IMG/VR virus record: IMGVR_UViG_3300008259_000011
Span: 70,144 to 134,143 of that record
DNA from: a virus
DNA length: 64,000 nucleotides
Reading direction: 5' to 3' (one strand)
Shown here: piece by piece, positions 33,929 to 52,139 of the stretch
Layout: each line of letters begins with the position of its first letter
How positions within the stretch are numbered: position 1 is the first letter of the stretch
Notes under the pieces: model-generated
Databases searched by the model: none
Told to the model about the DNA's origin: nothing
What the model saw: only the letters and a program-made list of their open reading frames with translations
Program-made: the position numbers and the translations under genes

Positions 33929-34496
33929 ATACCATATATACAAAACCCCCATCAAAAAATCTACCCCGCCGCCAAATTCAGATTTAACCCAAATCAGTGC
34001 AAAAAGTACCCCATAAAAACAGGGTCATATAACCAAAATAACAGGTAAAACGCTGCGCAGCGTATATATAAAAGTCCCCATAGAATTTTTACCATGTTGG
34101 GGGCAAAGGTCAGGGGGGGTGGGAGGGGTCGCGCGACCCCCATGTTCAGAAGTAAAACCGGGGGGGTGGGGTGGGGGGATCCCCCTGTTTTTGACGCGTA
34201 AAACAAGGGTATGGGTGGGTAGGGGACACCCCGGTTTTGTCAAGTAAAATAAGGGGGTGCCCCCGGAGGGGTCATTATTGAAAGTACACGTCCGGCCATT
34301 TGCCGGAATAGGTTCCCGTGACGGGACACCTTTTCAAGTGTCTTACCCCAGCCGCAACAGCCATGTGGCAGACCAGCGATAGCCACCGGCAGATAAACCG
34401 CCGGTCCCCGGTGGTTTGGATGAAGGATCGAATCCCTCAGCCGTTCCGCTGCGAGTGAATGAATGGTGTTCTTCATAGGACGAGGACAGTCTAGGT

Positions 34497-34512
34497 TGTT
34501 CCATGTGGAACA
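34497..34512. promoter_or_regulatory. parS-like palindrome
   Basis: TGTTCCATGTGGAACA. Confidence 0.6.
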
Positions 34513-34686
34513 CAACACTTTTTTTCAATTATTTTGAGTAGTCAGCGTAGGTGACGGAGTGGACAACTGACGCGTAAAACTTTTGAGGTTGACAAAGATG
34601 AGCGACGGTGGTAAACGGGTCTGACGCGTAAAACTTTTGAGGTTGACAAAAGGCCCGTGGACGTATCCACGGGTTTGATTACCCCG

Positions 34687-34821
34687 TCACTCTAGTGAGT
34701 CCCCATCGAGGACTTCCACCCCGGTGTAGATGACTATCTGCCCGGTGTTGTCGAAATCGACCTGACAACCAAGTGCTTGAAGTTGTCGGGTCAGCTCAAG
34801 AATCTGCCTTGTTTCGTCCAT
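34687..34821 (-). CDS. 44 aa protein, paralog of 36859..36999
   Basis: MDETRQILELTRQLQALGCQVDFDNTGQIVIYTGVEVLDGDSLE with own promoter and terminator. Confidence 0.7.
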   Translation of the reverse strand: MDETRQILELTRQLQALGCQVDFDNTGQIVIYTGVEVLDGDSLE

Positions 34822-35040
34822 GGTAGTGTTTGAGTAGTCAATAACCAACGGACCAGACCCTACCAGACATCATCGAACCGTCAATTGTTTTTTCACAATT
34901 TTTCCTACCGGGGGACGCGTAAAACTAATGACCTTGACCAAGTAGAGAGCCGATGGTAAACGAGTCTGACGCGTAAAACTTTTGAGGTTGACAAAAAAAA
35001 TACTGTTTACCAGATGAGTGATAAACAGTATCTTTGTGTA

Positions 35041-35238
35041 TTAGAAGTCCATTCCTCGTTCTATCTTATCTGCACAACTATTGCAATAAGCGTAGTGTGG
35101 TTGAATATTGACCATTCGTTCACAACCTCGACATTTCTTATTGACGTTGGTTTTCTGGCAATGGTGATAGAACGATACCATTTCAGGATCGTCCATTTCG
35201 TCCCAAGTGCCGAAGTTATCATCGTGATAAATAGGCAT
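35041..35238 (-). CDS. small CxxC zinc-binding protein
   Basis: MPIYHDDNFG...CRGC...CNSC. Confidence 0.65.
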   Translation of the reverse strand: MPIYHDDNFGTWDEMDDPEMVSFYHHCQKTNVNKKCRGCERMVNIQPHYAYCNSCADKIERGMDF

Positions 35239-35702
35239 AATAGTAATAGTAGTAGTGTAACCGACGTTGATGGAAAGAACAAACCGACGTTGAAACTGTC
35301 TCAAATCGAAATCTGGTTGTCTACATTTATTTCAAATTATTTTTACCGGGGGACGCGTAAAACTTATGTTCTTGCCAAAAGCGTTCGACTGTGGTAACGG
35401 CTGACGTAAAACTTTGGGTGTTGACAAAGATGGACAACGATGGTAAACGAGTCTGGATTGTGGTAACGGCTGACGCGTAAAACTTTTGGGGTTGACAAAG
35501 TTGACCGACGATAGTAAATGAGTCTGGATCGTGGTAACGACTGACGCGTAAAACTTTGGTGATTGACAAATCGTGGGTTTTTATCAAGGAACCCACAAAC
35601 CTTTGTCGATTTACTACTACTCTACTACCCCTCTATTACTAGAGGAGAAATTGATAAACAGGGGTATTTGTGATATTGATACCCCTCTAGTGATAGTGGG
35701 AG

Positions 35703-35897
35703 TTATTTAGATACTTTACGTTTGGCACTACGAAGTGCCATACCTCTCATGGGTGTGACAGTATCTTCTGTTCTAAATCCTCGACGTAGTTCCCAATCAC
35801 GGAACTTCTTATTGAAGTCTTCGATATTGATACGAGTATCAGTATGTCCAACGGTATCAGTAACGTAGTTTTCTCTTTTGAAACTTGGTTTGTGCAT
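35703..35897 (-). CDS. hypothetical protein
   Basis: 64 aa ORF. Confidence 0.55.
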   Translation of the reverse strand: MHKPSFKRENYVTDTVGHTDTRINIEDFNKKFRDWELRRGFRTEDTVTPMRGMALRSAKRKVSK

Positions 35898-36096
35898 TGT
35901 AGTAGAATAGTAATTGGGTTTTTAGGATTACCCACAACCTTTTATGGATACGGTGAATGCTGTGATGATTCACACCTGTAGATACCACAAAGTATTTACA
36001 AGTTGACGCAATATCCAAAGTGATAAAGTAACGTGGGTTTTTATCAAGGAACCCACAAAACCTTTACCTATGAACCAACAAACAACACTAACCTAC

Positions 36097-36654
36097 CTAT
36101 TCCCGAAACAATTTATCGAGATTTAGAACCTCGGTATTTATGTTCCGAAAAGTGATTTTGAGGATACTATCCATCGAAAACGTAATAACACTACGTTTGA
36201 AAGGTTTGATACTCGCGGGTTTATTGATAAAGGTCTTGAGAACTTCAACCTCTTTATCTGTTAGACGAATACCGTTATGGTAGTATGTATTGTTGTAAGA
36301 CCGGAATGGGAAATACTGCAGATATTTCTTGGTATGGTCTTTCTTTGATTGACAAAGGGCAAGTGCATTACCATTAGTGTCATGCTCATGGACATACCAT
36401 ATTTTACCGGGAACATAAACGGGTTGTTCAATACCCGCCTCTTTCATTCGACGGATGATTCCGTCGAGGTAGTTGATATTTACAAGTCCATTCCGACGGG
36501 ACCGTTTGGTCGCGCCGACAAATGGGTTGTTGGTTTTTCTGGCATCAACCTCGACTTCCGTTTCCATGGAGATAAACCGGCAAGCGGTTCCCAAGGTGCG
36601 GAGGTAGTCTGGCAGACTCTCGACTGGAACTTTCTGGGTAGGTAGGTTTTTCAT
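36097..36654 (-). CDS. hypothetical phage protein
   Basis: likely start MKNLPTQ after TTGACG promoter. Confidence 0.7.
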   Translation of the reverse strand: MKNLPTQKVPVESLPDYLRTLGTACRFISMETEVEVDARKTNNPFVGATKRSRRNGLVNINYLDGIIRRMKEAGIEQPVYVPGKIWYVHEHDTNGNALALCQSKKDHTKKYLQYFPFRSYNNTYYHNGIRLTDKEVEVLKTFINKPASIKPFKRSVITFSMDSILKITFRNINTEVLNLDKLFRE

Positions 36655-36858
36655 ATCGACGGAGACACAGTAGCCCGAAACCGTGTTTCCGTCAAAACAT
36701 TTCGCCACTTTTCTCCAACTATTTTCACCATGACCACCACCGTCCCGACGCGTAAAACTAATGACCTTGACAAAGTTGAACGACGATGGTAGACGAGTCT
36801 GACGCGTAAAACTTTTTGGATTGACAAAAGACCCGTGGACGTATCCACGGGTTTGATG

Positions 36859-36999
36859 TCAACCTATGCTGTTCTCGTCTAACACCTCAACTCCGGTGTA
36901 GATGAGGAGTTGGTTGTTGTTGTCCATCCCAACCTCACAACCAAGTTGATGGAGTTGTCGGGTCAGCTCAAGGATCTTTCGTTTCGTTTCTTCGTCCAT
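36859..36999 (-). CDS. 46 aa protein, paralog of 34687..34821
   Basis: MDEETKRKILELTRQLHQLGCEVGMDNNNQLLIYTGVEVLDENSIG. Confidence 0.7.
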   Translation of the reverse strand: MDEETKRKILELTRQLHQLGCEVGMDNNNQLLIYTGVEVLDENSIG

Positions 37000-37090
37000 G
37001 GTAGTATTTTTAGGTAGTTCGGTAACCGACGATGAGACCCTAACACAACCACCAACGGAGTAAATATGTATTTTGAACTATCTTTGACCA

Positions 37091-37106
37091 TGTTCCGCAT
37101 GGAACA
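37091..37106. promoter_or_regulatory. degenerate parS-like palindrome
   Basis: TGTTCCGCATGGAACA. Confidence 0.45.
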
Positions 37107-37245
37107 ACAACCTGACGCGTAAAACTTTTGATCTTGCCAAAAGCGTTCAACTGTGGTACCGACTGACGCGTAAAACTTTTGGGGTTGACAAAGTTAGGTA
37201 CTGTCTATCCGGTTATTGATAAACAGTACCTATGTTAGTGATTTA

Positions 37246-37635
37246 TCACACTTTTCGTTCGTAAATGTATGTACATACAGTATCAGGTAGTGGATGTGAC
37301 ATACCATGTGTCACTGCTACTACATCTCGACCTTCTCGTCGTGCGTCTCTTATGTAATTGAATATAGCAGTAGATTCGTGTTCCCATAGATATCTGTAGC
37401 CAGTGCAATTCTGACGACAATGAAACATAACTCCGTTCCGTACATAGCCCCGTTTTATTGCACTACGGTATTGCAGTGTCACACTTTTGATCATGTCTTC
37501 TGTTACACAGTTGTAATAATACAGAGATTTGTTGTATTTGTAGGACGTAGGGTGATAGTGAAACGTGGGTTTGACAGTAGCAGTATCAGTCGCAGTGGCG
37601 GTAGCAGTGGCAGTAGCGGTAGCAGTGGAGTTCAT
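37246..37635 (-). CDS. hypothetical protein with (Thr-Ala)n N-terminus
   Basis: 129 aa ORF. Confidence 0.65.
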   Translation of the reverse strand: MNSTATATATATATATDTATVKPTFHYHPTSYKYNKSLYYYNCVTEDMIKSVTLQYRSAIKRGYVRNGVMFHCRQNCTGYRYLWEHESTAIFNYIRDARREGRDVVAVTHGMSHPLPDTVCTYIYERKV

Positions 37636-37722
37636 ACGGTAGTAGGTAGGATGTGAACCGACGATGAGACCCTACCACGTCCATCAACGGTGTAAACATG
37701 TATTTGCAACTATCTTTGACCA

Positions 37723-37738
37723 TGTTCCACGTGGAACA
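37723..37738. promoter_or_regulatory. parS palindrome (perfect)
   Basis: TGTTCCACGTGGAACA matches the bacterial chromosomal parS consensus. Confidence 0.7.
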
Positions 37739-37876
37739 ACAACCCGACGCGTAAAACTTTGGTGGTTGACCGTATTGACCAACCATGATATTGATTGGGG
37801 AGGGGGTTCGATCTGACGCGTAAAACTTTTGGGGTTGACAAAAGTGAGTGGGGGGTGTACCCCCACCCCTCTCCTA

Positions 37877-38302
37877 CTAGGATATCTTACACACTTGTGG
37901 AGTCAGTTCTCTCCAATTAGACTCTCCACTACGGTATTTCCATTGACCATTGTCAAATAGATATTGATAGTCACACCACCCTTTGTTTCGTGACATCTTG
38001 TATTCAATGTCACTACTGACAGTCTGTTTCTCGTTACCCATCTCATTACGTTCCCGAAAGTAAAACACACAAACATTGTCTTGTGATTTACCAAACGTGT
38101 GAGGTTTATCAGGAGAAGGATCAATTTGTTCTCCCAACGAACTAATGTTACCGTTATCCAGTAACTTGTTGATAATCTCCTTGTTGTTGTAGTGATTCAA
38201 CAGAATCCTACCATTATGTTCAGGATAACCGTCCCAATGACAATAGACATAGGTAACTGTATTATCTTCGTTGACAATACCAATGTGTGAACGAGTTGAC
38301 AT
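37877..38302 (-). CDS. conserved phage hypothetical protein
   Basis: MSTRS.IG...YCHWDGYP..NG motif. Confidence 0.8.
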   Translation of the reverse strand: MSTRSHIGIVNEDNTVTYVYCHWDGYPEHNGRILLNHYNNKEIINKLLDNGNISSLGEQIDPSPDKPHTFGKSQDNVCVFYFRERNEMGNEKQTVSSDIEYKMSRNKGWCDYQYLFDNGQWKYRSGESNWRELTPQVCKIS

Positions 38303-38324
38303 AGTAGTTTAGTAGTGTAATAGT

Positions 38325-38645
38325 TTATTGTGAAATGTAACCGACTCCGAGTTTCAAGAACGGACTGACAATATCAAAGAAAAGGTCCGTGTCAAACGTA
38401 ATCCGACCGTCCAAGTCAAAACCGTACCCTTCCAAGACACGTCGATCAAAACCCACGGTGTCAAGAGTTTTCGAGTGGTAGATTCGGAGACCCCGATACC
38501 CCTCCCAATAGGGTGAGAGGAACAGAAACGTACCATCCTCCAATTTGACATGGAGGACACCTTCATGGGATTCAATCTTGTGAGGGAAACGGTATTCATG
38601 TTGAGTCGATAGGATGTTCTGATAAAGACGGTCCAAGTAGGACAT
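38325..38645 (-). CDS. hypothetical protein
   Basis: ORF after TTGACA promoter. Confidence 0.6.
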   Translation of the reverse strand: MSYLDRLYQNILSTQHEYRFPHKIESHEGVLHVKLEDGTFLFLSPYWEGYRGLRIYHSKTLDTVGFDRRVLEGYGFDLDGRITFDTDLFFDIVSPFLKLGVGYISQ

Positions 38646-38694
38646 GACCCGACACTACAGACCCCCATAGGGTTGTCAAAACTTTTTTCAAAAA

Positions 38695-38710
38695 AGTTCC
38701 ACATGGAACA
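38695..38710. promoter_or_regulatory. parS-like palindrome
   Basis: AGTTCCACATGGAACA. Confidence 0.5.
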
Positions 38711-38904
38711 TCCTCACCGACGCGTAAAACTTATGTTCTTGACACCAACCACGGTTTCTAATCTAGTCCGACGCGTAAAACTTTTGTCCTTGACACCATG
38801 AACCAACCGTGATACTCACCATCACAACTTCTGACGCGTAAAACTTTGAGGGTTGAAAAACTTGTGAGGGTTTATGGTTTACCCCCAACCTTTTGTATTG
38901 ACTT

Positions 38905-39135
38905 TCAGATAATCCCGAGTGCGATCAACGGACTCGGACATCCATGTTCACACGTTCCATCCGGTTCCACTTCACAACCTTCCGTGCAACAAGCCGGAAC
39001 CACGCTGTCATCACAAGCCTCTGTGATGAACTCGGTTACGTCGTCGTACCCATAACTCTTGGCCAGTTTGGACAGTTTGATACGATACGGGTTGGACTTC
39101 TCAACACGCTTTACAATGTCGTTCAAGTTGCTCAT
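38905..39135 (-). CDS. small Cys-rich protein
   Basis: CC...CEVEPDG.CEHGCPS. Confidence 0.65.
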   Translation of the reverse strand: MSNLNDIVKRVEKSNPYRIKLSKLAKSYGYDDVTEFITEACDDSVVPACCTEGCEVEPDGTCEHGCPSPLIALGII

Positions 39136-39433
39136 GTCGATGTTTAGGTTAGTTGGTTCAGTACAGTTGTCAATCCACAATCAAAAACTTTTTGCGTCCA
39201 ATCCTCGCCACTTCATCCAACGCTTCAGCGTTCCATTCTCCGTTGAACTGTTTGGCCTGCCATCGAATCACCTTGGCCACGGCTGCAATCGTCGTGTGAA
39301 CGGGTTTGAAGTGCGCGGTGAATAGGTTAGGTGGTTTTAGAACAAAGTCAATGGGTAGTTTGGCAAAAAGAGAGAGGGGGGTGGTGGTACTCCTCTAGTG
39401 GGGGTGGGCATCCACCCCTCTCTCTATGGTGAG

Positions 39434-39661
39434 TCAAGTCACATAACACGGTAGTGGTTTTCCATCGATTTCAACAATGATGACACCAGAACCACCATCA
39501 TGTTTGGCCTGTTCCTTGGATTCCTTGGCCTCCGCTTCGGTGGCATCACGAAGGAAACTGCCGTCAAAATAAGCGTGCAGTTTCAACGTGTCAATGTCGG
39601 TTGGGATTTCATCGTAGAGTTCCCGATAATCCTGTCGGATAAGGTCGTAGAGTTCGTTCAT
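39434..39661 (-). CDS. hypothetical protein
   Basis: ORF; start uncertain. Confidence 0.55.
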   Translation of the reverse strand: MNELYDLIRQDYRELYDEIPTDIDTLKLHAYFDGSFLRDATEAEAKESKEQAKHDGGSGVIIVEIDGKPLPCYVT

Positions 39662-39680
39662 AACGGTGATGAAACTAGGA

Positions 39681-40025
39681 TCAACCGGCCCAGATGTCAA
39701 TCCACCTTTTTGCGTTTTTCAACTTTTTTTCGGTGGGAAAACCGATTGACATACTCTTCATTTCAGGAATGAAGTTGAAGATCGTTTCACTCCAAACTTC
39801 CCTTTCAAGGGCATAAACCAGTCCATGAGTCCTGTCAAAGTAAGTGCAGTTGCCATTGCAATCCCTGAAAACCACACCCTTGTAACTCTTGTTAGCGTTA
39901 CGAAAGAATCCAACCGGAACGTAGGTTGCGTTACGCTGACACAAATCGTCTCCGGTGAAATCACGATACAGGTCCACACCTTCAACCGACTTGTCCTTGC
40001 GAATCTTCAATGAAGCCGTTTTCAT
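39681..40025 (-). CDS. hypothetical protein
   Basis: likely start MKTASLK. Confidence 0.55.
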   Translation of the reverse strand: MKTASLKIRKDKSVEGVDLYRDFTGDDLCQRNATYVPVGFFRNANKSYKGVVFRDCNGNCTYFDRTHGLVYALEREVWSETIFNFIPEMKSMSIGFPTEKKLKNAKRWIDIWAG

Positions 40026-40391
40026 TGGACTCAATCTATCAGAACTGTCACCACCGTCAAAACTTTTTTCAAACTTTCTCACCAACCCGACGCGTAAAAA
40101 TAATAACCTCGACAACCACCACGATTTAGTATCCATCACCACCGACGCGTAAAACTTATGGGTTTGACTTTTTCTAAAAAACCACGCTTAAAGCGCTTGC
40201 TTATGCTTATTGCTTGATATTATCTAAAAGATTAGAGAAGCTTGATTTTGTTTGTTGAACTTGACTGCGCATCATGCGCTTGTTGCGCTAATAGGTAGTT
40301 TTAGAAAAAGTCAAGTAATTATTTTATTTTAGAGATAATAGTAGATACAGTTAGGGGCTTGTTGCGCTGACCCCAAGCGTAGCGCTTACAA

Positions 40392-40715
40392 TCAAAAAGG
40401 CTGATTGTCAACACTATTCGTATTTTTATCTGCATCAGTAGCAATACGATACAGAATCGTAGGCTTGCCACGAACGCTCTTGCGAGTGCCACAGATAACC
40501 ATAAGGCCAAGTCTCACTTGATCCTTGACGTAGTGGTAAATGGTCGCATGAGACACAGGCTTATTCATGGCCATGGCTTCGTTGATGCTCCATTCTCCGG
40601 AACCAAAGATCAGCGTGCTTCGATCAATGATGCGTCCACGGCGCTTTGGCGTTGCGGTTTCGATAGACGTTTCAGTGGTTGCGGTTTCAGCTGCGGTTTC
40701 AATGGTGTTTTCCAT
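40392..40715 (-). CDS. small winged-helix-like DNA-binding protein
   Basis: basic; SHATIY..V, RGKPT.LY. Confidence 0.5.
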   Translation of the reverse strand: MENTIETAAETATTETSIETATPKRRGRIIDRSTLIFGSGEWSINEAMAMNKPVSHATIYHYVKDQVRLGLMVICGTRKSVRGKPTILYRIATDADKNTNSVDNQPF

Positions 40716-40756
40716 AGAGTCTTTAGAATAACTGGTTATTTTAGGTTGTCAACGGT

Positions 40757-41020
40757 TCAATCAAACGAATTGTTTGATCCAAAGCTCACCTGATATTCAT
40801 GGTAATACCTTGAATCATAGGTGTGGTCATCGCACTCCTCTCCTACTGGAGGGGGTGGAAACACTTCAGAGTGAATCTGCTCCAGCAGGTCCATCTTGTC
40901 TTGGTAAGCCCTCTCCATATCGGGAGAGAGCGGTGGAAGTAGCGCCACATACGCGGATAGCTCTTCCAGAAATTGCAAGTCTGCAATTCGTGTTAGTTCA
41001 TCATCTGTTAGTTCTTCCAT
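40757..41020 (-). CDS. hypothetical protein
   Basis: 87 aa ORF coupled to upstream gene. Confidence 0.55.
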   Translation of the reverse strand: MEELTDDELTRIADLQFLEELSAYVALLPPLSPDMERAYQDKMDLLEQIHSEVFPPPPVGEECDDHTYDSRYYHEYQVSFGSNNSFD

Positions 41021-41361
41021 CAGGGTTCCTCATAATAATAGTCAGACGGTTCTGGTTCATCACCGTCACAGTCATCACCGGCTTCATCTGTAATGCTATT
41101 GGCCCAGTCATCCAACATTGTTTCAATCATGGAGTCAATGGTCTTGATCTCCTCGGCAGTCATTCCGGTCTTGTCGTAACTGTAATCCTCAATGGTCACA
41201 TAATCGTGACCACGGTCGAATCCAACAGATCCCCAGTACTCATAGGGACCAATACCATCGTTCTCCCAGTAGTAGGAGAGTGTGACTTCGATTGACGTAA
41301 CATCAGGACGGGAAGCAATTTCAACTTCATCCAGCGTTCGATAGGCAGTGCGTGTGCTCAT
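41020..41361 (-). CDS. very acidic hypothetical protein
   Basis: NDGIG.YEYWG motif, D/E-rich. Confidence 0.7.
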   Translation of the reverse strand: MSTRTAYRTLDEVEIASRPDVTSIEVTLSYYWENDGIGPYEYWGSVGFDRGHDYVTIEDYSYDKTGMTAEEIKTIDSMIETMLDDWANSITDEAGDDCDGDEPEPSDYYYEEP

Positions 41362-41394
41362 AGTTCGTGCAGGTTATCTACAGTTTAGAGAAAG

Positions 41395-41625
41395 TCAAGC
41401 CCCCACCAACACTTTTTCCAAAAGTTTCTGCGCCCCCGTCTTGGTGTTGTTCCATCCCATGAATTGGGTGGCCTCACCGATGCCACGGTGGATGCGCCAT
41501 TCGTTCTTGTCAGTCTTGGTGTCGTGAGGCTTGTAAACGAAGCCAACCTCCACGCCCTCCACATACAACACGTTGAGGTTCGGCAGGCTCGACTGGACAC
41601 GCTTCCAAGCAAACTTGATCTTCAT
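41395..41625 (-). CDS. hypothetical protein
   Basis: ORF after TTGACT promoter. Confidence 0.6.
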   Translation of the reverse strand: MKIKFAWKRVQSSLPNLNVLYVEGVEVGFVYKPHDTKTDKNEWRIHRGIGEATQFMGWNNTKTGAQKLLEKVLVGA

Positions 41626-41667
41626 GGACAAGAGACTAAACGAGTGAATGGTGGAGTCAACAACTTT

Positions 41668-42186: not shown

Positions 42187-42207
42187 AGATGTACCGTCAA
42201 TACCTTT

Positions 42208-42402
42208 TTATTCTTTGTCTTTGGGATCGACGCGTAAAATTGAGACCCACAAAGCGATGACATCACCGATCTTGTCGATGAGCATGGTACAGAAACTTGT
42301 CAAGAGAAAATAAGCGAGGATCATCATCAGTAGCACGCTGAGATAATTGGGGATGCTCTCAAGCATGAACTTGACTAGATCGTTGATGTTTAGAATAATC
42401 AT
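42208..42402 (-). CDS. small membrane protein
   Basis: hydrophobic 64 aa ORF. Confidence 0.5.
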   Translation of the reverse strand: MIILNINDLVKFMLESIPNYLSVLLMMILAYFLLTSFCTMLIDKIGDVIALWVSILRVDPKDKE

Positions 42403-42435
42403 GGTCTCCCAGTGTAACCTAGGAGACCATGTTTG

Positions 42436-42753: not shown

Positions 42754-43230
42754 GTTAGTCCTTGAGTTTGATGTTGAGAGTGGCACGAAACCGAGCGTAG
42801 TCCCGTGCGACCCGGATGGCATTAGCACGAGCAACACGTTCAGTCAACGACAATCGTTGGTTGATGGAAACCCGAAGGTTGTCCTTGAGATGGTAGCGAG
42901 CAGTAGACTTCATACAGAAGACACAGTAGTTTGGCATTATCGGGAAATCAACAACTCTTTTCAGAAATCTTTGGGTTGGGGGGACGCGTAAAACTTTGAG
43001 CGTTGACTTTGATGGGTGGTTAGTATCTAGGACGACGCGTAAAATCTTTTCCGTTGACAAAGTTGGTCCGGTAGTATCCAGAAACGGTCATAATGCCAAA
43101 CCAATCATTAGATAAAAAAGTTGTAGAATTGTGTGGACTCCGGTGCGACTAGGTGGTAGATTGTACTCGTCAAGTCGGTAATGGATACCGATGAGGACAC
43201 AGAAAACAAAAATTGTAACATAAACTCAAT

Positions 43231-43773: not shown

Positions 43774-43889
43774 ACACCCCTCTCACTATGGTTAGGGGTT
43801 ACCCAAGAAAACCCCGGTACACCTACCCCCAAACTTTTTCTAAAATCCTCTGGACAACCCCTCTCCCACACACTAGAGTCGTCTCCGTT

Positions 43890-44585
43890 ATGCCAAACCA
43901 TACCGCTAACAACTTCACCATCACCGGACCCAAGGATACTGTTCTGGCATTTATCGAACGTGCCAAGGATAAGAATCCCGATGAACTGGACCCTCAACAG
44001 TTGTCGTTCAACTCCCTACTTCCTCTTCCGAAAGAGTTGAAGGGTATTGCAAGTCCCGTGAGGATTATGACCCAAGACCAAATTGATGAAGTCTGGGCTG
44101 TGTGGAACGAACGCAAGAGTCAAGGAAAACTTGGTGCGTTTGAAAAGAACGGTCCCTTTGGATTGGGATTGACAAGGGAGCAGAGTGAGGAACTGATTTC
44201 CAAATACGGCGATTGTGACTGGTACAGCTGGTGCGTCTCTAACTGGGGAACCAAATGGAACTGTTACGACGTTACCGAGTGGAACGTCCATGATAAGGGG
44301 GATGGAACCATGAGTGCGACCATCTACTATGAAACCGCATGGAGTCCTGCCACCATTTTGTGGCTCAAGGTTTCCACAGAGTACCCTGACTGTGAGTTTT
44401 ACCATGAGTTTGCGGATGAGGGTGGCGGTTTCTTGGGTAGTGAGGTTATTCTGAATGGCGGGGTTATTTCGGAGGAAGAGCTTGACTGGAACAGTTCCGA
44501 TGGCATTGAACTGCGTGAAGGACTGGGAAGGTACTGGCCGGGTGAGGAAGAAGAAAACGTGGATGAGGCTCGGGTGAACGAGTAA
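43890..44585 (+). CDS. DUF1281/YubB ferredoxin-like fold protein
   Basis: MPNH..N, WY.W...NWGTKW, ETAWSP. Confidence 0.8.
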   Translation: MPNHTANNFTITGPKDTVLAFIERAKDKNPDELDPQQLSFNSLLPLPKELKGIASPVRIMTQDQIDEVWAVWNERKSQGKLGAFEKNGPFGLGLTREQSEELISKYGDCDWYSWCVSNWGTKWNCYDVTEWNVHDKGDGTMSATIYYETAWSPATILWLKVSTEYPDCEFYHEFADEGGGFLGSEVILNGGVISEEELDWNSSDGIELREGLGRYWPGEEEENVDEARVNE

Positions 44586-44665
44586 AAGTCAAGAACAAAA
44601 AAACCTTGGGGTTAGGTGAAAAAGCCCCTTGACTCTTTCCAATACCCTGATAACTTGAACCCGAC

Positions 44666-45175
44666 ATGAAGATTCGCAAGAACAACATTGTAAAGACCAA
44701 CATCCCTCTGACCGTGGGAGTCTACGACATCAAGACGCTTCCGGTAGGTACTCTCCTACAGGTTTGGAAGACTACCAAGCAAGGTGAACTGTACTGTACG
44801 ACTCTGGACAGGAAACTGTGCAGCCATACCGTTATCACCAACGAAGCGTCTGTTACCAAGGAAGAACAACCGCTTCCCACGGTCAAGGTTGGTGACATCT
44901 TTGTTTCGAGCTGGGGATACGATCAAACCAACATTGATTTTTACAAGGTGTTGAATGTCAAGAACAAAACTGCGATTCTGGCAGAAATCGGTCAGAAACG
45001 TGAGTACACCGGGCACATGAATGGCAGGTGCGTTCCCAATCCTGATGTGGTTGGAAAAAAGACCTTGACAAAACGGATTATGTCGATGCAGGGGTTGCCC
45101 TGTTTCAAGATTACCAATTACGCTTCGGCGTATCCTTGGAGTGGTTTACCCTGTGGATTTTCAGAATGGGCTTGA
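44666..45175 (+). CDS. hypothetical phage protein
   Basis: GDIFVSSWGYDQTNIDFY motif. Confidence 0.75.
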   Translation: MKIRKNNIVKTNIPLTVGVYDIKTLPVGTLLQVWKTTKQGELYCTTLDRKLCSHTVITNEASVTKEEQPLPTVKVGDIFVSSWGYDQTNIDFYKVLNVKNKTAILAEIGQKREYTGHMNGRCVPNPDVVGKKTLTKRIMSMQGLPCFKITNYASAYPWSGLPCGFSEWA

Positions 45176-45209
45176 CAATTTGACTGAATCGTCTAACCTG
45201 TTCCTGACA

Positions 45210-45437
45210 ATGAAAACGACCTTTGTTGACCGTCAAAAGACCACACTCTACAAGTACGAAGTGGACTTCCGTAACAAGACCTACTCGGTGGAATACTTCA
45301 CCGATGGTAGTGGAAAGTGTGTCAAGGTGGACATCCTGAACGAATGGGGTGTGAGTCAGTTTGAAGTGGAAGACGATGACGTACTTTCAGAAATCTTCAA
45401 TGCTGTCAAGTACGAAGTTGACAATTTGGACAGGTAG
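45210..45437 (+). CDS. hypothetical protein
   Basis: likely start MKTTFV. Confidence 0.6.
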   Translation: MKTTFVDRQKTTLYKYEVDFRNKTYSVEYFTDGSGKCVKVDILNEWGVSQFEVEDDDVLSEIFNAVKYEVDNLDR

Positions 45438-45518
45438 GACATAGGGGTGGAAAAGGTTGTGGGTGATCCGTAAAAACCCTCTTGACTTTCTCTAAAACTT
45501 CTCTAAACTGTACACACG

Positions 45519-45824
45519 ATGAATAAAGATAAGATCAAAATTATCCTCGGACTTTTCAGAAACTATCAGGTTTGGATCAATCAAGACTTTTTTTACATTG
45601 ACAATGTAAATGTACACCTCGCTGAGGTTGAGTTTGAACCAAACAACGAAGTGGTGTATCTTTCTTGGGAAGGATCGGACGGTGAAGAATACCGTATCAA
45701 GTTTGATGAATCGGGATTGTCCAACGCCCGTGTCAAAGATGGAAACTTGATTGTCGAAGATACCGAAGGTGATGAAATTGAACTCACCTTCAACAAACTC
45801 ACAAAATACGTTGTTCAACTGTAA
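45519..45824 (+). CDS. acidic hypothetical protein
   Basis: ORF after TTGACT..TAAACT promoter. Confidence 0.65.
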   Translation: MNKDKIKIILGLFRNYQVWINQDFFYIDNVNVHLAEVEFEPNNEVVYLSWEGSDGEEYRIKFDESGLSNARVKDGNLIVEDTEGDEIELTFNKLTKYVVQL

Positions 45825-45870
45825 GAAACCCGTTGACTTTCTCTAAAACTTCCTATACCTTATTTAAACG

Positions 45871-46251
45871 ATGAACATTGAACTTGCCGTGGGTGACAAA
45901 TTCATTCATACTGACATTCTTGGCAAAAAATGGGAGTTAACGTATACTGGAACTCGCCGTGAAGTCAAAGGTTGTGAGTTTGAATTTTTTGTAGATGATA
46001 AAGGTGTTGGTTGTTTCTTTACAGATAGTGAAGTAGCTAAAATGGAGAAGATTACCCCCCAAATGAAAACCTACAAAGTTCCCGTGGTTTGGCAGATGTA
46101 CGGCTACGTTGAAATGCCTGCCAATTCGATTGACGAGGCAGTCAAAAAGGTGGAGAATGGTTACGGCGACGTTCCACTTCCCGCTGACGCTGACTACGTT
46201 GAAGGAAGTTTTGAAATCGACTACGAAGCTGTTGACTTCTCCGCAAACTGA
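45871..46251 (+). CDS. hypothetical protein
   Basis: ORF after TTGACT..TATACC promoter. Confidence 0.65.
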   Translation: MNIELAVGDKFIHTDILGKKWELTYTGTRREVKGCEFEFFVDDKGVGCFFTDSEVAKMEKITPQMKTYKVPVVWQMYGYVEMPANSIDEAVKKVENGYGDVPLPADADYVEGSFEIDYEAVDFSAN

Positions 46252-46595
46252 ACTAGAATGATACCCACGATGAACGAACCGCTTTCATTTTCTGAATGGT
46301 GTTATGAGGTTGATATTGAAACTCAGTATCAACAATTTTATGATGAATATGGTGATGCGGCTTGTTTACTTTGTGAATACAAAGATCGTCATTACCGAGA
46401 ATATTTAGAGAATTTTGAAAAAAGCTGTTGACTTTCTGAAAAAAGCTGATAATCTATTACCACGATGAAGATCAAAGTTACTGACATTGTTTATGACACT
46501 ACTGACAATGAGGAGCTATATCTGAATATGGATCTTCCTACTGAGTTAGTGTTTGACATTGATGGTGATAGTGATGATATTGAGTATGAGATCGT

Positions 46596-46955
46596 TTGAC
46601 ACCGTTGAAACACGCTGAGAGTTCTGTACGACGATGGGGTGGTTCCGTTACCGACTACATCGACCTACATGACTGGTTTGACGAGACCAAAGCCTTTACC
46701 GGAGATTGGACCCATCGAGCGCTTCGGCATCACTCGGCTGGTATTCAATGGGCTGTTGAGAAGTTTGGTCATGTGATTGTCAACAGTAAAGGTAACAATG
46801 TTCCTGTCAAGATGTTGGCGGAGCAGCACGTGGAAGAGGATTGTGGATTTATTCCCACGGTTCAGGATTACCTCAAGGCGTTGTCCAAGAGTCCTGAACC
46901 GTGGATGTTGAAGGTTGGCAAAAAAACTATGACAGCCACCCTAGAAATCGTTTGA
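46596..46955 (+). CDS. DUF6915-like protein
   Basis: P..HA.SS..RWGG, H.WFDETK, HRALRHH..GI, EQHV.EDC. Confidence 0.75.
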   Translation: MTPLKHAESSVRRWGGSVTDYIDLHDWFDETKAFTGDWTHRALRHHSAGIQWAVEKFGHVIVNSKGNNVPVKMLAEQHVEEDCGFIPTVQDYLKALSKSPEPWMLKVGKKTMTATLEIV

Positions 46956-46987
46956 CTTTCGGTAATAAACAACTAGACTAGAAACGT

Positions 46988-47338
46988 ATGGAAATTGAAC
47001 CGCTGAGCAAAGAAATCTACAACAAGGCCAAGGCGTTGGGAATCACCAAGATTGTTCTCAACTTCTCCGGTGGCAGTGATGAGGGTTACCTCAACGTCAC
47101 GTTGTACCCGTGGGACCAAAACAAGTCTGATGAGCACAACAAGTTGAACGCCGAGGTTGAGAACTGGGCGTGGGATGTTTATTCCTACTCTGGCGCTGGT
47201 GATGGTAGTGACTATGGTGATGACATTGAGTACGACCTTGAGAACAACAAGGTTTCGTCTCAAGAGTGGTACACGGCAAGGACCGATGGTGATAGTGCCG
47301 AGATTGACTTGGTTCTTGACGAGAACGAACAAGATTGA
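46988..47338 (+). CDS. DUF6878-like acidic protein
   Basis: FSGGSDEG motif; adjacent to DUF6915-like gene. Confidence 0.6.
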   Translation: MEIEPLSKEIYNKAKALGITKIVLNFSGGSDEGYLNVTLYPWDQNKSDEHNKLNAEVENWAWDVYSYSGAGDGSDYGDDIEYDLENNKVSSQEWYTARTDGDSAEIDLVLDENEQD

Positions 47339-47590
47339 GTGGTAGGGGTTTATTCTCTTCCCCTTCATTATGGGTTTGCGGTTATCCCACCACAAAAAAC
47401 CGTTTGATCTTTGTGGGAGAATATGGAGTATCGTGACACCATAGGTTGCTTTGTGTTTCTACTTTCGTTCCTATGTAATGTTTGGTAATACTTAGCGGTT
47501 CATTTGTTTTTCTCATTTTGCAACGTGGTTACCGCACATATTCTTTTTATCATAGGTTTTTGGTTATCCTATCACAACAAAACCATCTAC

Positions 47591-47667
47591 GGGCCATTAG
47601 CTCAATTGGTTAGAGCAGGGAACTCATAATTCCTTGGTTGTCGGTTCAAGTCCGGCATGGCCCACCA
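47591..47667 (+). tRNA. tRNA with CAT anticodon (Ile2-lysidine or elongator Met)
   Basis: canonical cloverleaf, loop ctCATaa, G1-C72 paired so not initiator. Confidence 0.9.
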
Positions 47668-47714
47668 TTTTTCCCCTTGACTTTCTCTAAAATCCTCCTA
47701 GACTGTACACCGTT

Positions 47715-47966
47715 ATGACAAAGACCTATCAACGTATTTGTGACCCCGGACACTCTTGGCTTGAAGTGCCCGTCGAAGACGTGCGTGACCTTGCCGGGGT
47801 GTTTGATGAAATTACCAACTACTCTCCTATCAAGAAACGTAAGTTCTATCTTGAGGAAGATTGTGACCTTGATACCTTCTTTATGGCAATGCGTAACAAA
47901 GGATACACGGTCAACATGATAAATATCAATGTGCCAGACTTTGATTCGTATCTGGCCAATCAGTAA
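47715..47966 (+). CDS. hypothetical phage protein
   Basis: DPGH.WL.V, YLEEDCD motifs; terminator follows. Confidence 0.75.
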   Translation: MTKTYQRICDPGHSWLEVPVEDVRDLAGVFDEITNYSPIKKRKFYLEEDCDLDTFFMAMRNKGYTVNMININVPDFDSYLANQ

Positions 47967-48055
47967 AACTTACAAATGCCAAACTAACCACCTGTAAAAA
48001 GGTGGTTTTTTTATGTTGACAAATCTACACTATCCTGATAGACTTATGGTGTAAT

Positions 48056-48406
48056 ATGACTAAAATCTCAAATAACTTTACCGGAAACATTGATGAACTT
48101 CTCAACCATTGCGCTAGCGTTGATGACGCTACTATTGACCAAGCTCTTGAACTTGAACGTGCAATCGAACACGTTATGACTGAATTGGAAATGGACCGTG
48201 AGGAAGCCATGCAGCTTATCCAAGACATTCATCTTGCCGAAGTTCAACAGACAGTTCTTGATATGGTTGACAAGGGATTGTTGGAAGTGACTGGATTCAA
48301 TGAAGATGGTGAACCTCTTTATGGCCAAACTGAACTTGGTAAGAAGTTGTCTCAAGATAGCGATATTCTTGGTTCCATCGACCAACAACGTAAGTCCGAC
48401 GCGTAA
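48056..48406 (+). CDS. hypothetical protein
   Basis: 116 aa ORF. Confidence 0.65.
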   Translation: MTKISNNFTGNIDELLNHCASVDDATIDQALELERAIEHVMTELEMDREEAMQLIQDIHLAEVQQTVLDMVDKGLLEVTGFNEDGEPLYGQTELGKKLSQDSDILGSIDQQRKSDA

Positions 48407-48703
48407 AACTTATTGTCTGGACACAATCAAGTCAGGGTTGACGCGTAAAAGTTTCAACCTTGACTTTCTTCATGCGTTGGTGTATTGGACGCGTAAAAGA
48501 CGACGCGTAAAACCCACAATGGTTGACTTTTCCATTGTGGGTTGTTATGTTATCTGGCTAAACAAAAAACAGCATATTGCTATGCTGTTGCAGTATCTTG
48601 CGTCAATAGGATTTACCGAAGGATGTCAGTTATGAATGAATACCGAAGACCTATTGATCACAGATGAACTCCGCAAGCGGTCATAGCAATATACTGTCAA
48701 AGA

Positions 48704-48892
48704 TCACTTGATACGTAGCAATTGATTACCACGACCAATTGCAACACCTTTACTATCAACTGTAGTATCAGTTTTACTATTATACGTGCCAATCGTTCGA
48801 TTGTTACTGTCGTTCAACCGAGTGATGTTACCTTGCGTTTGGACGCTAGCAACAGTTCGGTTATTCATGTCCTTGATATATGATTTACTCAT
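48704..48892 (-). CDS. hypothetical protein
   Basis: 62 aa ORF with repeated D.NNRT. Confidence 0.6.
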   Translation of the reverse strand: MSKSYIKDMNNRTVASVQTQGNITRLNDSNNRTIGTYNSKTDTTVDSKGVAIGRGNQLLRIK

Positions 48893-48926
48893 GTTGAATA
48901 TATACTACTATGGTTTACTAACAAAG

Positions 48927-49355: not shown

Positions 49356-49389
49356 AGTTACAATATAAATATGACCAACTACATCTGTT

Positions 49390-49641
49390 TTACTCCAAAA
49401 GTGTCATGTATGGATGATATTGTATAATCGTCCGACTATAGTTCTTATCCGTCATCGGTTCACATATATACAATACATTGTTGTACTTCAACAAACACTG
49501 ATTCATATGATCAGTAAACAACATACGATCAATAGTACCCTTTACCGCAGATAACTCCACATCCTCAATAACAGGATACTTCTGCAACGTAGCGTTAGAC
49601 GACTTTGGCCAAGTAATACCAATAACTTTAGTGGTGGTCAT
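49390..49641 (-). CDS. hypothetical protein
   Basis: 83 aa ORF. Confidence 0.55.
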   Translation of the reverse strand: MTTTKVIGITWPKSSNATLQKYPVIEDVELSAVKGTIDRMLFTDHMNQCLLKYNNVLYICEPMTDKNYSRTIIQYHPYMTLLE

Positions 49642-49644
49642 ATA

Positions 49645-51060
49645 TTACCAAATACGAATATCTCCAGTCAAATCACCATCGTTCAACAAATCCATGTTGT
49701 CAATCTTGAACTGTACACGTTCACAACAACGTTCCTCAATCGTACCAGACGCAAATATAATCTTTTGGATACACGGTGTCTTTCCTTCAGCCCGATGTAT
49801 ACGTCCCAACGCCTGTGACAAATGTATAGCACTAAACGATGGATTCAATATAGCACCCCTAGCATACTTGCCATTCAAATCATGTAACCCAATACCATCA
49901 TTACCCGCAGCCATATTCACCAACATAATACGTTTACGATCCTCCTGAAACGCATCAATAATGCTTTGACGTTTCTTACTACTCTGCCCACCCACAATAA
50001 TGCCAACCTCATCACCATACAACGCTTCTAACCTCGTCTGCAACGCTTCAATAGTCTCAGTGAAGTTCACAAACACAACCGGACTAATATTCTCCCGGTA
50101 CCATTCAGTAACCATATCAATCATCGTTGGTACCTTCAAAACTTCAGCCATACGACGAGCCCTAACCATCTGCGCAAATACATGAGAACTATACTCACTA
50201 GCATCCTTGTCCAACCTGTCAATCTCCGCCTGCATCAACTCATACACCCGTTGAATCTTTGAAGTATTATCACCCATATCCACACACTCAGCAAATACAC
50301 GATTATCAGGAAACAAAGACTTCATCTGTTCCCGCGTCAACCTACTAGCCAATTGCTGAACATTAAACAAACTATTATGTATAGTCCTCATTCCCTGTTG
50401 AGTACGTGCACTAGCCAAATTCAATTGCTGTCCAAATTGTGTCTGCACAACATCACAAACACCATCCACCCACGCCTTAAACGTATACCCACTATGCAAA
50501 TTAGTAGCATACCCAAACGCCCTCATCTCCGTAGGCATAGTAGCAGCACTAGCACTCATCATCAATACCTTATAACCCTCACGCTTAAACCGTATCGGTA
50601 TCACACTCGTAAGACTACTGCCACCCTTACAACGATGAATCTCATCCATGATAACCAAACTGTTCTTGGGTATCTTGATCTTAATACCACATTCCTTGTC
50701 CCATATACTAGAACGCATAAACGTATTGTTATTGAATTCCAATAAATGGTGACACTTTGTCCCACGAATCAATTGCTCATAGTTGACAATATGGTTGTTA
50801 CAATAACCATCAAACGCCACCGCCTTACCATTCAAAGCACTATTAACCTTAATGCCAACGCTATTCAATATACGTTGCCATACCGGAATAACACCTTTAG
50901 GACAAATAACCGTGATAGGCACATTCATCTGTTTGGCAATCCATGTTGCCACATACGTTTTGCCACATCCAGTTTCACTCAAATCTGCAGCAACTCCATT
51001 GAGATACAAACTATCCAACAGACGCTTAGCATGATCCACCTGCGGTTCCAATAATGTCAT
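49645..51060 (-). CDS. SF2 (SNF2-like) helicase
   Basis: ETGCGKT, DEIH, SAS, GIGL, QALGRIHR. Confidence 0.9.
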   Translation of the reverse strand: MTLLEPQVDHAKRLLDSLYLNGVAADLSETGCGKTYVATWIAKQMNVPITVICPKGVIPVWQRILNSVGIKVNSALNGKAVAFDGYCNNHIVNYEQLIRGTKCHHLLEFNNNTFMRSSIWDKECGIKIKIPKNSLVIMDEIHRCKGGSSLTSVIPIRFKREGYKVLMMSASAATMPTEMRAFGYATNLHSGYTFKAWVDGVCDVVQTQFGQQLNLASARTQQGMRTIHNSLFNVQQLASRLTREQMKSLFPDNRVFAECVDMGDNTSKIQRVYELMQAEIDRLDKDASEYSSHVFAQMVRARRMAEVLKVPTMIDMVTEWYRENISPVVFVNFTETIEALQTRLEALYGDEVGIIVGGQSSKKRQSIIDAFQEDRKRIMLVNMAAGNDGIGLHDLNGKYARGAILNPSFSAIHLSQALGRIHRAEGKTPCIQKIIFASGTIEERCCERVQFKIDNMDLLNDGDLTGDIRIW

Positions 51061-51091
51061 AAATTTTATAGAAAGTAGAGTCTACCACACT

Positions 51092-51832
51092 TTAGACGGT
51101 TGTCAACCCCTTACGACCCTGATTCTTATCGGAATAACCCATAATGCCAACCTTCCTCAATTCACTAATAGCCTTGCTGGCTTTGCTACCCTTCGGCTGC
51201 TTTCCATGAATCAATAACGCAAAATCACCCCCGGTACCATACGCATGACTATCATCATGATCAATAGCTAACCCCATATCACTCGCTTCCTTCTCACTAT
51301 ACACCACAACTGCACTACGCAAATCATGTTGCTTAATCAAATAATCATGCTTGCCACCATAACTAGCAGTCAATCGAAAGTTAGCCGGTATCTTATCCAA
51401 CCTATTCACCCAATACACCAAACTTTTCGTATAAGCATAAAAGATACAGTCAGGACGCTCAATTGCCACCCTCAACCAAGCATCAAAGTACTCCTGACTA
51501 TAAAAGTCACCAGCCACATGAATACGCACCTTCTTAGCCTTACGACTCAAACTGATATCAATCAACTCATACATACAGTCCTTGGCAGCCACCAACAAAT
51601 CAAAGTTATGCCACCTGCTAATCCTCACATTAGGATACAAATTCTCCTGACTAGCACTAAAACACCGAAATACAGCATTCTTTCCATCAACCAAATGGCC
51701 ACCCCCACGATTCACTTTTGCCAAACATTGTTCCGCAAACGGACAAGTCCATCCACTCGGTAAACTAAACGTGTAAATCTCCTTGTCCAGTTTAGCGTTA
51801 CCACGTCCAAACGAAAGCGTTTCAATCATCAC
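51092..51832 (-). CDS. GP88 family protein
   Basis: FSLPSGWTCP.A..C, RIHVAGDFYS..Y...W, FYAYTKS. Confidence 0.8.
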   Translation of the reverse strand: MMIETLSFGRGNAKLDKEIYTFSLPSGWTCPFAEQCLAKVNRGGGHLVDGKNAVFRCFSASQENLYPNVRISRWHNFDLLVAAKDCMYELIDISLSRKAKKVRIHVAGDFYSQEYFDAWLRVAIERPDCIFYAYTKSLVYWVNRLDKIPANFRLTASYGGKHDYLIKQHDLRSAVVVYSEKEASDMGLAIDHDDSHAYGTGGDFALLIHGKQPKGSKASKAISELRKVGIMGYSDKNQGRKGLTTV

Positions 51833-52139
51833 GAACGCAGTGTAAACGACCCACAGCCACTTTCAACACCTTTCTTCAACTTTCTCACACACCCCCAGAC
51901 GCGTAAAACCCAAACACCCAAACAACCCATCGACGCGTAAAACCTTTAGTCTTGACCAAACCTAAGCGTTAGCGTATCCACCCAGACGCGTAAAACCATA
52001 CCCCTTGACAAAACACACCAACCATGATACCCCAAGACGCGTAAAACTTTAGCGCTTGACATCCTACCCAAACCATGATAAACTATTAGCGTACACCCCC
52101 TGCGCAAATTCGATAACCACAACCCCATCACTACCATTG

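Follow-up and report, generated by a model that had tools for sequence, protein, structure and literature searches.

Repeated cassettes of a promoter and a stem-loop that shuffle genes have been documented in T4-type phages, in the sections of two papers that deal with such repeats (Comeau et al. 2014, PMC4122927; Arbiol et al. 2010, PMC2839356). In the layout outlined for these elements, referred to as PeSLs (promoter-early stem-loops), a stem-loop is followed by an early promoter and then by the start of a gene, the promoter having the orientation of the gene (PMC4122927). The portion of a T4 review on early promoters describes an extra upstream consensus in them, and how early transcription comes to be switched off is mentioned there as unexplained (PMC2988021). 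In the current analysis, repeats headed by the box GACGCGTAAAA have been characterised in the final 64 kb of one contig of 134,143 bp (IMG/VR record IMGVR_UViG_3300008259_000011, positions 70,144 to 134,143); this stretch of 64,000 nucleotides is referred to as the window, and its numbering is used throughout. From sequence comparison we read the repeats as multiplied upstream halves of a phage promoter, a variant of the PeSL cassettes of T4-type phages, and assign this reading a probability of roughly 0.55.

The box is an invariant sequence of 11 bases. Thirty exact copies are found between 34193 and 52046, all on the + strand, which reproduces the count and orientation given in a preliminary description of this DNA. 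They form 13 clusters, lettered A to M, across 18 kb. Relaxing the search to one mismatch gives 33 matches, where 100 shuffles gave 0.99 on average and 4 at most. A scan of the full 134,143-bp contig on both strands has 30 exact copies on the + strand, 0 on the - strand and none beyond the island, so that the confinement to 34-52 kb suspected earlier stands for exact boxes; 30 of the 35 ACGCGT sites of the genome fall inside boxes. A degenerate copy, one base short, is located at about 35403. The three copies with one mismatch (1970, 10087 and 52393-52403) are all on the - strand. The last of these belongs to a reverse unit (52378-52403, - strand) in the non-coding region right of cluster M, with TTGACA 9 nt after the box, and has the exact box in two relatives (L037 and L112). 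The polarity is therefore 30:1 and not absolute: the statement that all copies lie on the + strand holds for the 30 exact boxes and fails for this reverse unit. Gene direction does change near 43 kb as had been noted: the coding strand is - at 34-43 kb, + from 43.2 to 48.4 kb, - from 48.7 to 51.8 kb (helicase and GP88 among the genes) and + again from about 52.5 kb onward. Limited to one 18-kb island, the array is polar regardless of gene direction.

Each box heads a module of about 51-54 bp. Copies aligned on the box have in common GACGCGTAAAAC, a T-rich stretch and a TTGAC 9 nt past the box. TTGAC is found at exactly this distance in 20 of the 30 copies, and a hexamer with at most one mismatch to TTGACA, as in a sigma-70 type -35 element, in 25. 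About 17 nt past the TTGACA there is usually a TGnTA in which the final T of the -10 is missing. A TA is present 16-18 nt after the -35 hexamer in 13 of the 30 copies, often preceded by TG, and the commonest -10-like words (TGGTAAACG, TATCCA and TGATACCC) have this TA without the last T. A complete TAnnnT at 16-18 nt occurs in a single unit, the fourth of cluster M (M4), or in two if the fourth of cluster L (L4), with its -35 shifted by one, is counted; a consensus scan picks out these two as full promoters. In a set of 105 distinct units, drawn from the window and from 20 relative loci, the -35 hexamer is TTGACA in 51, TTGACT in 15 and TTGACC in 8. If a 17-bp spacer is assumed, the box would be placed at about -55 to -45.

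Within the clusters the next box begins 2-5 nt past the -10-like word, and hence the spacings of 51 and 54 bp are the lengths of units arranged head to tail. The nine pair spacings listed in the preliminary description (54, 54, 54, 51, 51, 55, 51, 53 and 51 bp) are all present in the computed list, which also contains 14, 34, 42, 48, 63, 69, 71 and 120. Of 57 internal units in the window and the 20 relative loci, 16 measure 51 bp and 15 measure 54 bp, the others ranging from 14 to 71. The helical phasing proposed from these spacings is not a separate signal, as 51 and 54 are unit lengths and the values of 14, 22, 33-35, 42, 48-49 and 63-71 are out of phase.

Metagenome contigs scanned with the pattern box-N9-TTGAC gave at least 119 stretches, including at least 23 loci with two or more boxes that match the island at 70-93% identity. 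The boxes are one-stranded in all loci listed, apart from one reverse copy in L037 and L112. Conservation was read at positions homologous to the boxes of the window in 20 aligned loci with a mean identity of 81.9%. The homologous box is intact at 81 of 87 such positions; it has been lost at 48488 in four loci, at 40144 in L017 and at 48502 in a single locus. Base for base, identity reaches 0.962 in the box and 0.948 in the -35, compared to 0.757 for the 40 nt upstream, 0.799 for the stretch from box to -35, 0.792 for the spacer, 0.848 for the -10 region and 0.839 downstream. The higher identity of box and -35 than of their flanks shows, at the level of such comparisons, purifying selection on both, and the -10-like part appears weakly selected. 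Selection on box and TTGACA in diverged relatives is as expected of sites bound by protein, a character that had been predicted for the array.

The ancestry of the box is suggested by more distant relatives. Twenty IMG/VR loci with helicases 36-57% identical were obtained through an alignment of helicase homologues, and a count of 10-mers with at least 4 copies in these loci revealed no antisense polar array, only sense-oriented promoter repeats. The closest two (L143 and L144), with a helicase 57% identical, are syntenic with the island and have a one-base variant of the box in two places. At the site equivalent to cluster M the variant occurs twice, about 30 nt apart, followed by TTGACA-N17-TATACT and then by the tag CTGCGCAAATT, as after M4; past the tag there are TTTGTCAA and ATATATAC-type repeats, like those of the island. 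In the second place an ordinary sense promoter, which comes after a stem-loop and before an ATG, has the variant 12 nt upstream of its -35. The gaps of L144 equivalent to clusters K and L have no box, and in the readable part of the comparison the M-type promoter upstream of the GP88 gene is present in L143 and L144 only, not in L135, L138 and L139. As the variant belongs to normal promoters in these loci, which have no arrays, the box is shown by this comparison to be an old upstream element of normal promoters, and the box/-35 arrays are, on the same evidence, a recent expansion in this lineage.

A separate class of promoters is encoded in the same region. Sites of the form TTGACN-N16/17-TAnnnT number 42 in 14-53.5 kb, and at 24 of them an ATG opening an open reading frame (ORF) of at least 40 codons follows 6-12 nt past the -10; these look like promoters of almost leaderless genes. 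Every one of the 24 points in the direction of the genes; by region, the counts are 13 (- strand) left of 43 kb, 9 (+ strand) from 43 to 48.5 kb, 1 (- strand) from 48.5 to 52 kb and 1 (+ strand) to the right of 52 kb. The box is present at two of the 42 sites only (L4 and M4). The ordinary promoters often have an A-rich stretch beside the -35, and their repeats are found in both orientations. Examples are as follows.

38650..38681, - strand: TTGACA-N16-TAGTGT with ATG 6 nt on, back-to-back with cluster H.
47677-47705 and 45482-45510, + strand: two further ordinary promoters.

The ordinary promoter with its start context, CCACGATGAA, is also the top repeat in relatives with 40-57% helicase identity. 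Since a separate co-oriented class exists, and a + strand ORF follows a box unit at promoter distance in one case out of 30, as rare as the complete -10, the box copies are not merely ordinary promoters. Another motif, TATTTATA, is probably a late promoter or start context: between 0 and 104 kb of the genome, a range that takes in window positions 1-34000 and the DNA upstream of the window, it has 33 copies in the sense of the leftward genes and 10 in the opposite sense, often few bases before an ATG, and it is nearly absent from the island. Upstream of the helicase in three of the distant loci (L136, L140 and L147) a one-orientation repeat, AATTTAGGTACCCC, is found in 5-7 copies co-oriented with the genes and may represent another promoter class. 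The one-orientation TTTAGGTACCCC repeat of the same three loci was considered as an analogue of the array and ruled out, being co-oriented with its genes.

The clusters of boxes in the window, all on the + strand, are listed below with their surroundings.

34193..34203, + strand: cluster A, a solitary box with no TTGAC at +20; the box is kept in relative L019.
34173-34185 and 34252-34264: hairpins flanking cluster A, terminator-like on the + strand and on the - strand, respectively.
34569..34673, + strand: cluster B, boxes at 34569 and 34623, 54 bp apart; the second abuts a hairpin (34654-34673) that reads as a terminator on the - strand.
34914..35031, + strand: cluster C, boxes at 34914 and 34968, 54 bp apart; hairpin at about 35000-35031 with a run of 8 T on the - strand.
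35352..35596, + strand: cluster D, boxes at 35352, 35472 and 35543 in addition to the degenerate copy; hairpin at about 35573-35596.
36747..36852, + strand: cluster E, boxes at 36747 and 36801, 54 bp apart; hairpin at 36831-36852, terminator-like on the - strand.
37114..37232, + strand: cluster F, boxes at 37114 and 37165, 51 bp apart; hairpin at about 37195-37232.
37746..37868, + strand: cluster G, boxes at 37746 and 37815, 69 bp apart; hairpin at 37846-37868, terminator-like on the - strand.
38719..38890, + strand: cluster H, boxes at 38719, 38770 and 38833, with spacings of 51 and 63.
40089..40196, + strand: cluster I, boxes at 40089 and 40144, 55 bp apart; hairpin at 40184-40196, terminator-like on the - strand.
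42229..42239, + strand: cluster J, a solitary box without TTGAC, 28 nt from the -35 of a leftward promoter at 42200; kept in relative L057.
42983..43085, + strand: cluster K, boxes at 42983 and 43034, 51 bp apart, in the divergent region ahead of the rightward operon beginning at 43231.
48398..48541, + strand: cluster L, boxes at 48398, 48440, 48488 and 48502, located where the rightward operon has its 3' end; the first shares bases with the stop codon of the gene at 48056-48406, and the last (L4) has its TTGAC in the loop of a hairpin (48513-48541) and a proper TATGTT.
51898..52090, + strand: cluster M, boxes at 51898, 51932, 51985 and 52036.
52036-52090, + strand: M4, a full promoter, TTGACA-N17-TAAACT with TG, conserved in L143 and L144.

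Clusters B to I occupy intergenic gaps of the leftward gene block. To their left stands, back-to-back with the boxes, the ordinary promoter that serves the next leftward gene, and to their right a hairpin with the appearance of a terminator for the preceding leftward gene. The T-run of this - strand terminator is complementary to the As that follow the last TTGACA; the + strand has no T-run. From the first box to the -35 of the leftward promoter there are 24-31 nt in clusters C, I, J, K and M, and 38-54 nt in clusters E to H. In all, 9 of the 13 clusters oppose leftward genes. Clusters K and M precede rightward operons, and L ends a rightward operon, before a hairpin.

Several features have been observed beside the clusters. 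A 14-bp palindrome, GTTCCAYRTGGAAC, is present at 34498-34511, 37092-37105, 37724-37737 and 38696-38709, between clusters B, F, G and H and the leftward gene starts, once within a promoter spacer, and also in the distant relative L136 at about 6880; a conserved regulator acting as a dimer is a candidate to use it as operator. To the right of cluster I, a conserved non-coding stretch (40200-40390) with repeated GCTTGTTGCGCT-like words, spanned at 40230-40380 by a contig of the sequencing run X20, may be a small RNA or a 3' untranslated region. Downstream of M4 a non-coding region of about 860 bp (52100..52960) contains the sign change of the GC skew, together with five repeats of the AGCGTTTGTCAA type, several of ATATATAC and G-rich runs. 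Its layout is kept in L144, and with M4 feeding it, it may serve as an origin of replication or as a master control region.

The boxes mark the borders of swappable cassettes of small genes, as is shown by rearrangements in relatives. In L019 the first unit of B is joined straight to the last of D (B1 to D4), with 34594-35541 skipped, and in L075 the first of D is joined to about 37672, with about 2.2 kb skipped. In L017 and L034 cluster E is joined to C, and the zinc-ribbon gene is on the other side of the 203-residue gene. In run X18, a relative passes over 34534-37744 and 40171-43020, two segments running between clusters. In L019, L075, L017/L034 and at the two X18 joints, insertions, deletions or replacements thus have boxes at their borders, a position also taken by PeSLs in their phages. 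Assemblies of runs X15 and X17 break at boxes, e.g. in contigs 35473-37192 and 37166-38765. A duplicated cassette is exemplified by two paralogous genes of 44-45 residues on the - strand (34687-34821 and 36865-36999), whose products both begin with MDE and have LELTRQL in common; each is flanked by two box clusters and has the same terminator hairpin.

The island is a region of small variable genes of the kind called hyperplastic in T4-type phages, its ORFs being mostly of 44-265 residues with few family matches. The assignment of genes at 34-43 kb to the - strand is based on three genes with PHROG matches, the paralogous genes of 44/45 residues and the zinc-ribbon ORF. The G+C content of 34000-48000 is 43-47%, against 30-40% in the flanks, and its ORFs score badly under a codon model trained on the remaining genome; base composition and codon scores suggest foreign or fast-turnover gene content. 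Immediately to the left, a 511-residue ORF (32396-33928, + strand) has a HEWAH zinc-protease-like motif, no family match and a strong composition bias (GC skew about -0.39, AT skew +0.26).

Judged by its protein matches the phage is a distant T4-type myovirus. Pfam matches comprise the T4 major capsid protein, T4-type portal and large terminase, gp25 and the prohead protease, and further a fused nuclease/ATPase, PhoH and Hsp20. ARAGORN identified 27 tRNA genes in the window, and a tmRNA is also encoded. The cultured phages closest by capsid protein are Flavobacterium phage immuto (57.4%), a Microcystis-labelled phage (55.8%) and Rhodothermus phage RM378 (36.8%). A Shine-Dalgarno-like 4-mer precedes 15 of 91 long ORFs. 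DNA of this phage has been found in sequencing runs from 15 studies, mostly of freshwater, and is widespread in lakes; among the 24 runs listed it is present in 20, of which X20 alone is recorded as RNA, with two others guessed to be RNA. An ADP-ribosyltransferase-domain protein (24451-25278) and a Mom-family protein (23101-23961) are encoded left of the island, and a 160-residue protein with a weak match to sigma-70 region 4 (E 7e-4) is encoded to its right (57954-58436); these could have a bearing on transcription control.

Searches for the box or the island in other phages gave little. Megablast of window positions 34000-44000 against GenBank phages gave no match, the genome of phage immuto, scanned for the box only, has 0 boxes at up to one mismatch, and a search of IMG/VR with helicase peptides found nothing. 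Scanning IMG/VR with the box pattern yielded two unrelated single matches, judged to be chance. In the literature, 16 papers contain the box and its complement, and the 8 that were listed all deal with unrelated subjects; searches for antisense or convergent early promoters of T4-like phages, and for the closest cultured phages, returned nothing relevant. A host-derived promoter element was also considered: the 19-base extended unit, searched in one genome per species, had 2 matches, both in the same conserved coding gene of two Crocinitomicaceae metagenome-assembled genomes, which amount to one chance event and are no evidence on the host.

In the mechanism that we propose, box and -35 together would dock the RNA polymerase holoenzyme. 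The box is most likely, to judge from its position and conservation, the site of a transcription factor of phage or host or of the C-terminal domain of the polymerase alpha subunit, and we infer that polymerase or such a factor binds the units. The ancestral copy would be M4 at the control region, which has a full -10 and would fire rightward. From it the box/-35 module would have spread as head-to-tail direct repeats of 51 or 54 bp to the cassette borders of the 18-kb hyperplastic island. A module that spreads and recombines as a direct repeat has a single orientation whatever the gene direction, and direct repeats stay oriented through unequal crossing-over and cassette excision or insertion; the polarity could in this way arise with no part played by DNA entry or replication. 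A perfect -35 with TG and no final T of the -10 is expected to give good binding of holoenzyme and poor opening of DNA. Most copies would accordingly initiate weakly or only with the box factor, or would mainly hold polymerase. The titration of a host protein suggested in the preliminary description may in this form, or as docking of a protein such as RNA polymerase, be part of their role.

What the arrays would do to the genes around them is much more tentative. Clusters B-I and L would fire or hold polymerase against the leftward genes, leading to antisense RNA, interference or insulation, while K and M would feed rightward transcription, M4 and perhaps K supplying the control region and the operons. 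That the arrays serve in this manner as polar antisense promoters or polymerase docking sites controlled by the box factor, set head-on behind the leftward early units so as to switch off or insulate them and to feed the rightward operons and control region, is a doubtful extension. By analogy with T4 it makes them a possible candidate mechanism by which early transcription is turned off.

A number of observations weigh against the promoter-half interpretation. Five boxes (34193, 42229, 48488, 48502 and 51898) have no TTGAC-like hexamer at the fixed distance, that of 48502 being shifted by 1, and two of the five (34193 and 42229) are solitary. With the one TAnnnT in 30, most units should open DNA poorly by the sigma-70 rule, a rule assumed to hold for the host; the capsid kinship with phages of Flavobacterium and, by its label, Microcystis, and the small share of long ORFs with a Shine-Dalgarno-like 4-mer, bear on this assumption. 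The solitary + strand ORF at promoter distance points the same way, and the 9 opposing clusters aim into the 3' ends of converging genes with no obvious promoter product. The 20 aligned loci were found through the box, by which at least one box per locus is selected; dropping one from each leaves 61 of 67 intact. The four runs examined for transcripts consist of contigs, and the RNA run X20 is unstranded and uninformative on strand, starts and level; its contigs give no cover over several arrays, to which no evidential weight is attached. No candidate box-binding protein has been identified in this analysis.

The alternative that survives best, though we consider it rather unlikely, is a sequence-specific DNA-binding protein that does not initiate transcription and acts as a polar roadblock or insulator between leftward units or as an organiser of the island, with TTGAC as its second half-site. 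Such a protein would account for an invariant box beside -10-like parts that vary, and for the lone boxes at 34193 and 42229, which are kept in relatives without TTGAC. The location of the eight arrays B-I directly after a - strand terminator-like hairpin, whose T-run complements the As past TTGACA, would suit a roadblock, as would the 24-31 nt between first box and leftward -35 in C, I, J, K and M. But the second conserved element is the exact -35 consensus at a promoter-like distance from TGnTA, and the variant of L143/L144 is situated 11-12 nt, not 9, from a -35 with proper -10s, which fits a separate upstream element; K and M, moreover, face no leftward transcription from the right. Two readings of the complement strand were tried and rejected. 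As an ECF-type (extracytoplasmic function) or Bacteroidota-type promoter it has a variable base after GTCAA and no -7-type motif, and as a - strand polymerase promoter within the unit it has no -10 at a usable distance.

It is improbable that the units are functionless by-products, i.e. promoter fragments decayed after recombination slippage at cassette borders and homogenised by gene conversion. There is a precedent in the PeSL paper, where degraded copies with only the -35 are described and multiple weak copies are ascribed to recombinational slippage in the portion on such copies (PMC4122927). In the island, too, recombination junctions coincide with boxes, odd fusions at 14 and 22 nt have a box starting inside or right after another element, and the more distant relatives have no arrays. 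Decay does not predict the position-specific conservation (box 0.962 and -35 0.948 against 0.76-0.85 around, in lineages about 82% identical), and the conversion of whole units cannot explain an identical box in unit classes with very different spacers.

Functions at the level of DNA, namely guidance of entry or packaging, iterons or fork barriers, exonuclease protection sites or strand-specific nick sites, are highly unlikely. They would explain an orientation set by the genome and not by the genes, and the lone reverse copy beyond the origin-like region means that all copies aim at about 52.1-52.4 kb. Yet every cluster is intergenic and tied to a -35 and TGnTA at fixed distances, and the box variant of L143/L144 is the upstream part of normal promoters. 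Replication iterons, one of the earlier suggestions, would be repeats at one origin with an AT-rich region and an initiator gene; the 13 clusters across 18 kb are unlike an origin, only cluster M adjoins the origin-like, non-coding, AT-rich repeat region, and no initiator gene has been identified. T4-type phages package by headful and are not known to have a fixed leading end. Staged ejection, also raised before, is judged unlikely, as the T4-type terminase and portal imply by inference that no fixed end enters first.

Equally hard to sustain is the view that the units encode a family of short RNAs with the box as common 5' end and the hairpin as 3' end, which is favoured by the next box of the 54-bp class lying 5 nt past the -10-like hexamer, near the expected start, and by strong hairpins after the last unit of clusters B-G (-11 to -24 kcal/mol), but is opposed by the 51-bp class, in which the box is 2 nt past the hexamer and the start would fall within it, by the lack of a promoter ahead of the first box of any cluster, by hairpins without T-runs on the + strand, and by Rfam matches in the island that amount to one tRNA only. 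An RNA element in general was considered from the sequence and dropped on the same grounds.

If the interpretation as multiplied promoter halves is true, T4-type phages can multiply just the docking half of a promoter, in one direction, at cassette borders. Head-on promoter-like arrays may then regulate or insulate early genes, and the invariant box is a precise handle on the protein that reads it. Iterons, polar fork-barrier sites and exonuclease-control sites are short oriented repeats whose direction is set by the chromosome and not by genes. The boxes resemble them in a direction set relative to the genome; such sites differ in that they are not known to be tied to a -35 and TGnTA at fixed distance, to occur only at borders of transcription units or to be bound to a cassette island.

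Compared with the middle promoters of T4 and their MotA box, as treated in the corresponding part of the review (PMC2988021), the units share a phage-specific box near the -35 region that defines a class apart from the early promoters, and a weak core that would make initiation dependent on a factor. They differ in that the MotA box takes the place of the -35, at about -30, and acts with AsiA, whereas here the -35 is intact and the box is further upstream. No MotA or AsiA family was matched among the ORFs scanned with Pfam, a scan confined outside 27-64 kb to ORFs of at least 110 residues. The early promoters of T4, described in the same source as composed of UP, -35, TGn and -10, are alike in their strong host-type -35 and TGn and in a conserved sequence in the contact zone of the alpha subunit (PMC2988021), and the present phage also has a gene with an ADP-ribosyltransferase domain at 24451-25278. 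In contrast to the upstream element there, the box is invariant and G+C-rich in its first half, and is not a general A/T-rich upstream element; the A-rich stretch by the -35 belongs to the ordinary promoters of the phage, and in most box units the -10 is without its last T.

The PeSLs, as far as their description in these accounts extends (PMC2839356; PMC4122927), are the nearest match: in both cases a T4-type phage has short conserved repeats of promoter and stem-loop among small genes, of unknown function, in a hyperplastic region, the borders of insertions, deletions and moves are at the repeats, and degraded copies retain only the -35. A stem-loop upstream of a co-oriented promoter is found at the ordinary promoters of the island, while the box units have the stem-loop downstream on their own strand. 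It is the ordinary promoters that play the role of PeSLs here, the box units being an extra element between stem-loop and promoter. The box units further differ from PeSLs in lying on the strand opposite to the genes in 9 of the 13 clusters, and in forming head-to-tail arrays with an invariant 11-base upstream box and mostly no functional -10. The driving of genes and the handle for recombination, which are joined in PeSLs, would on the reading as multiplied promoter halves be separated in this phage.

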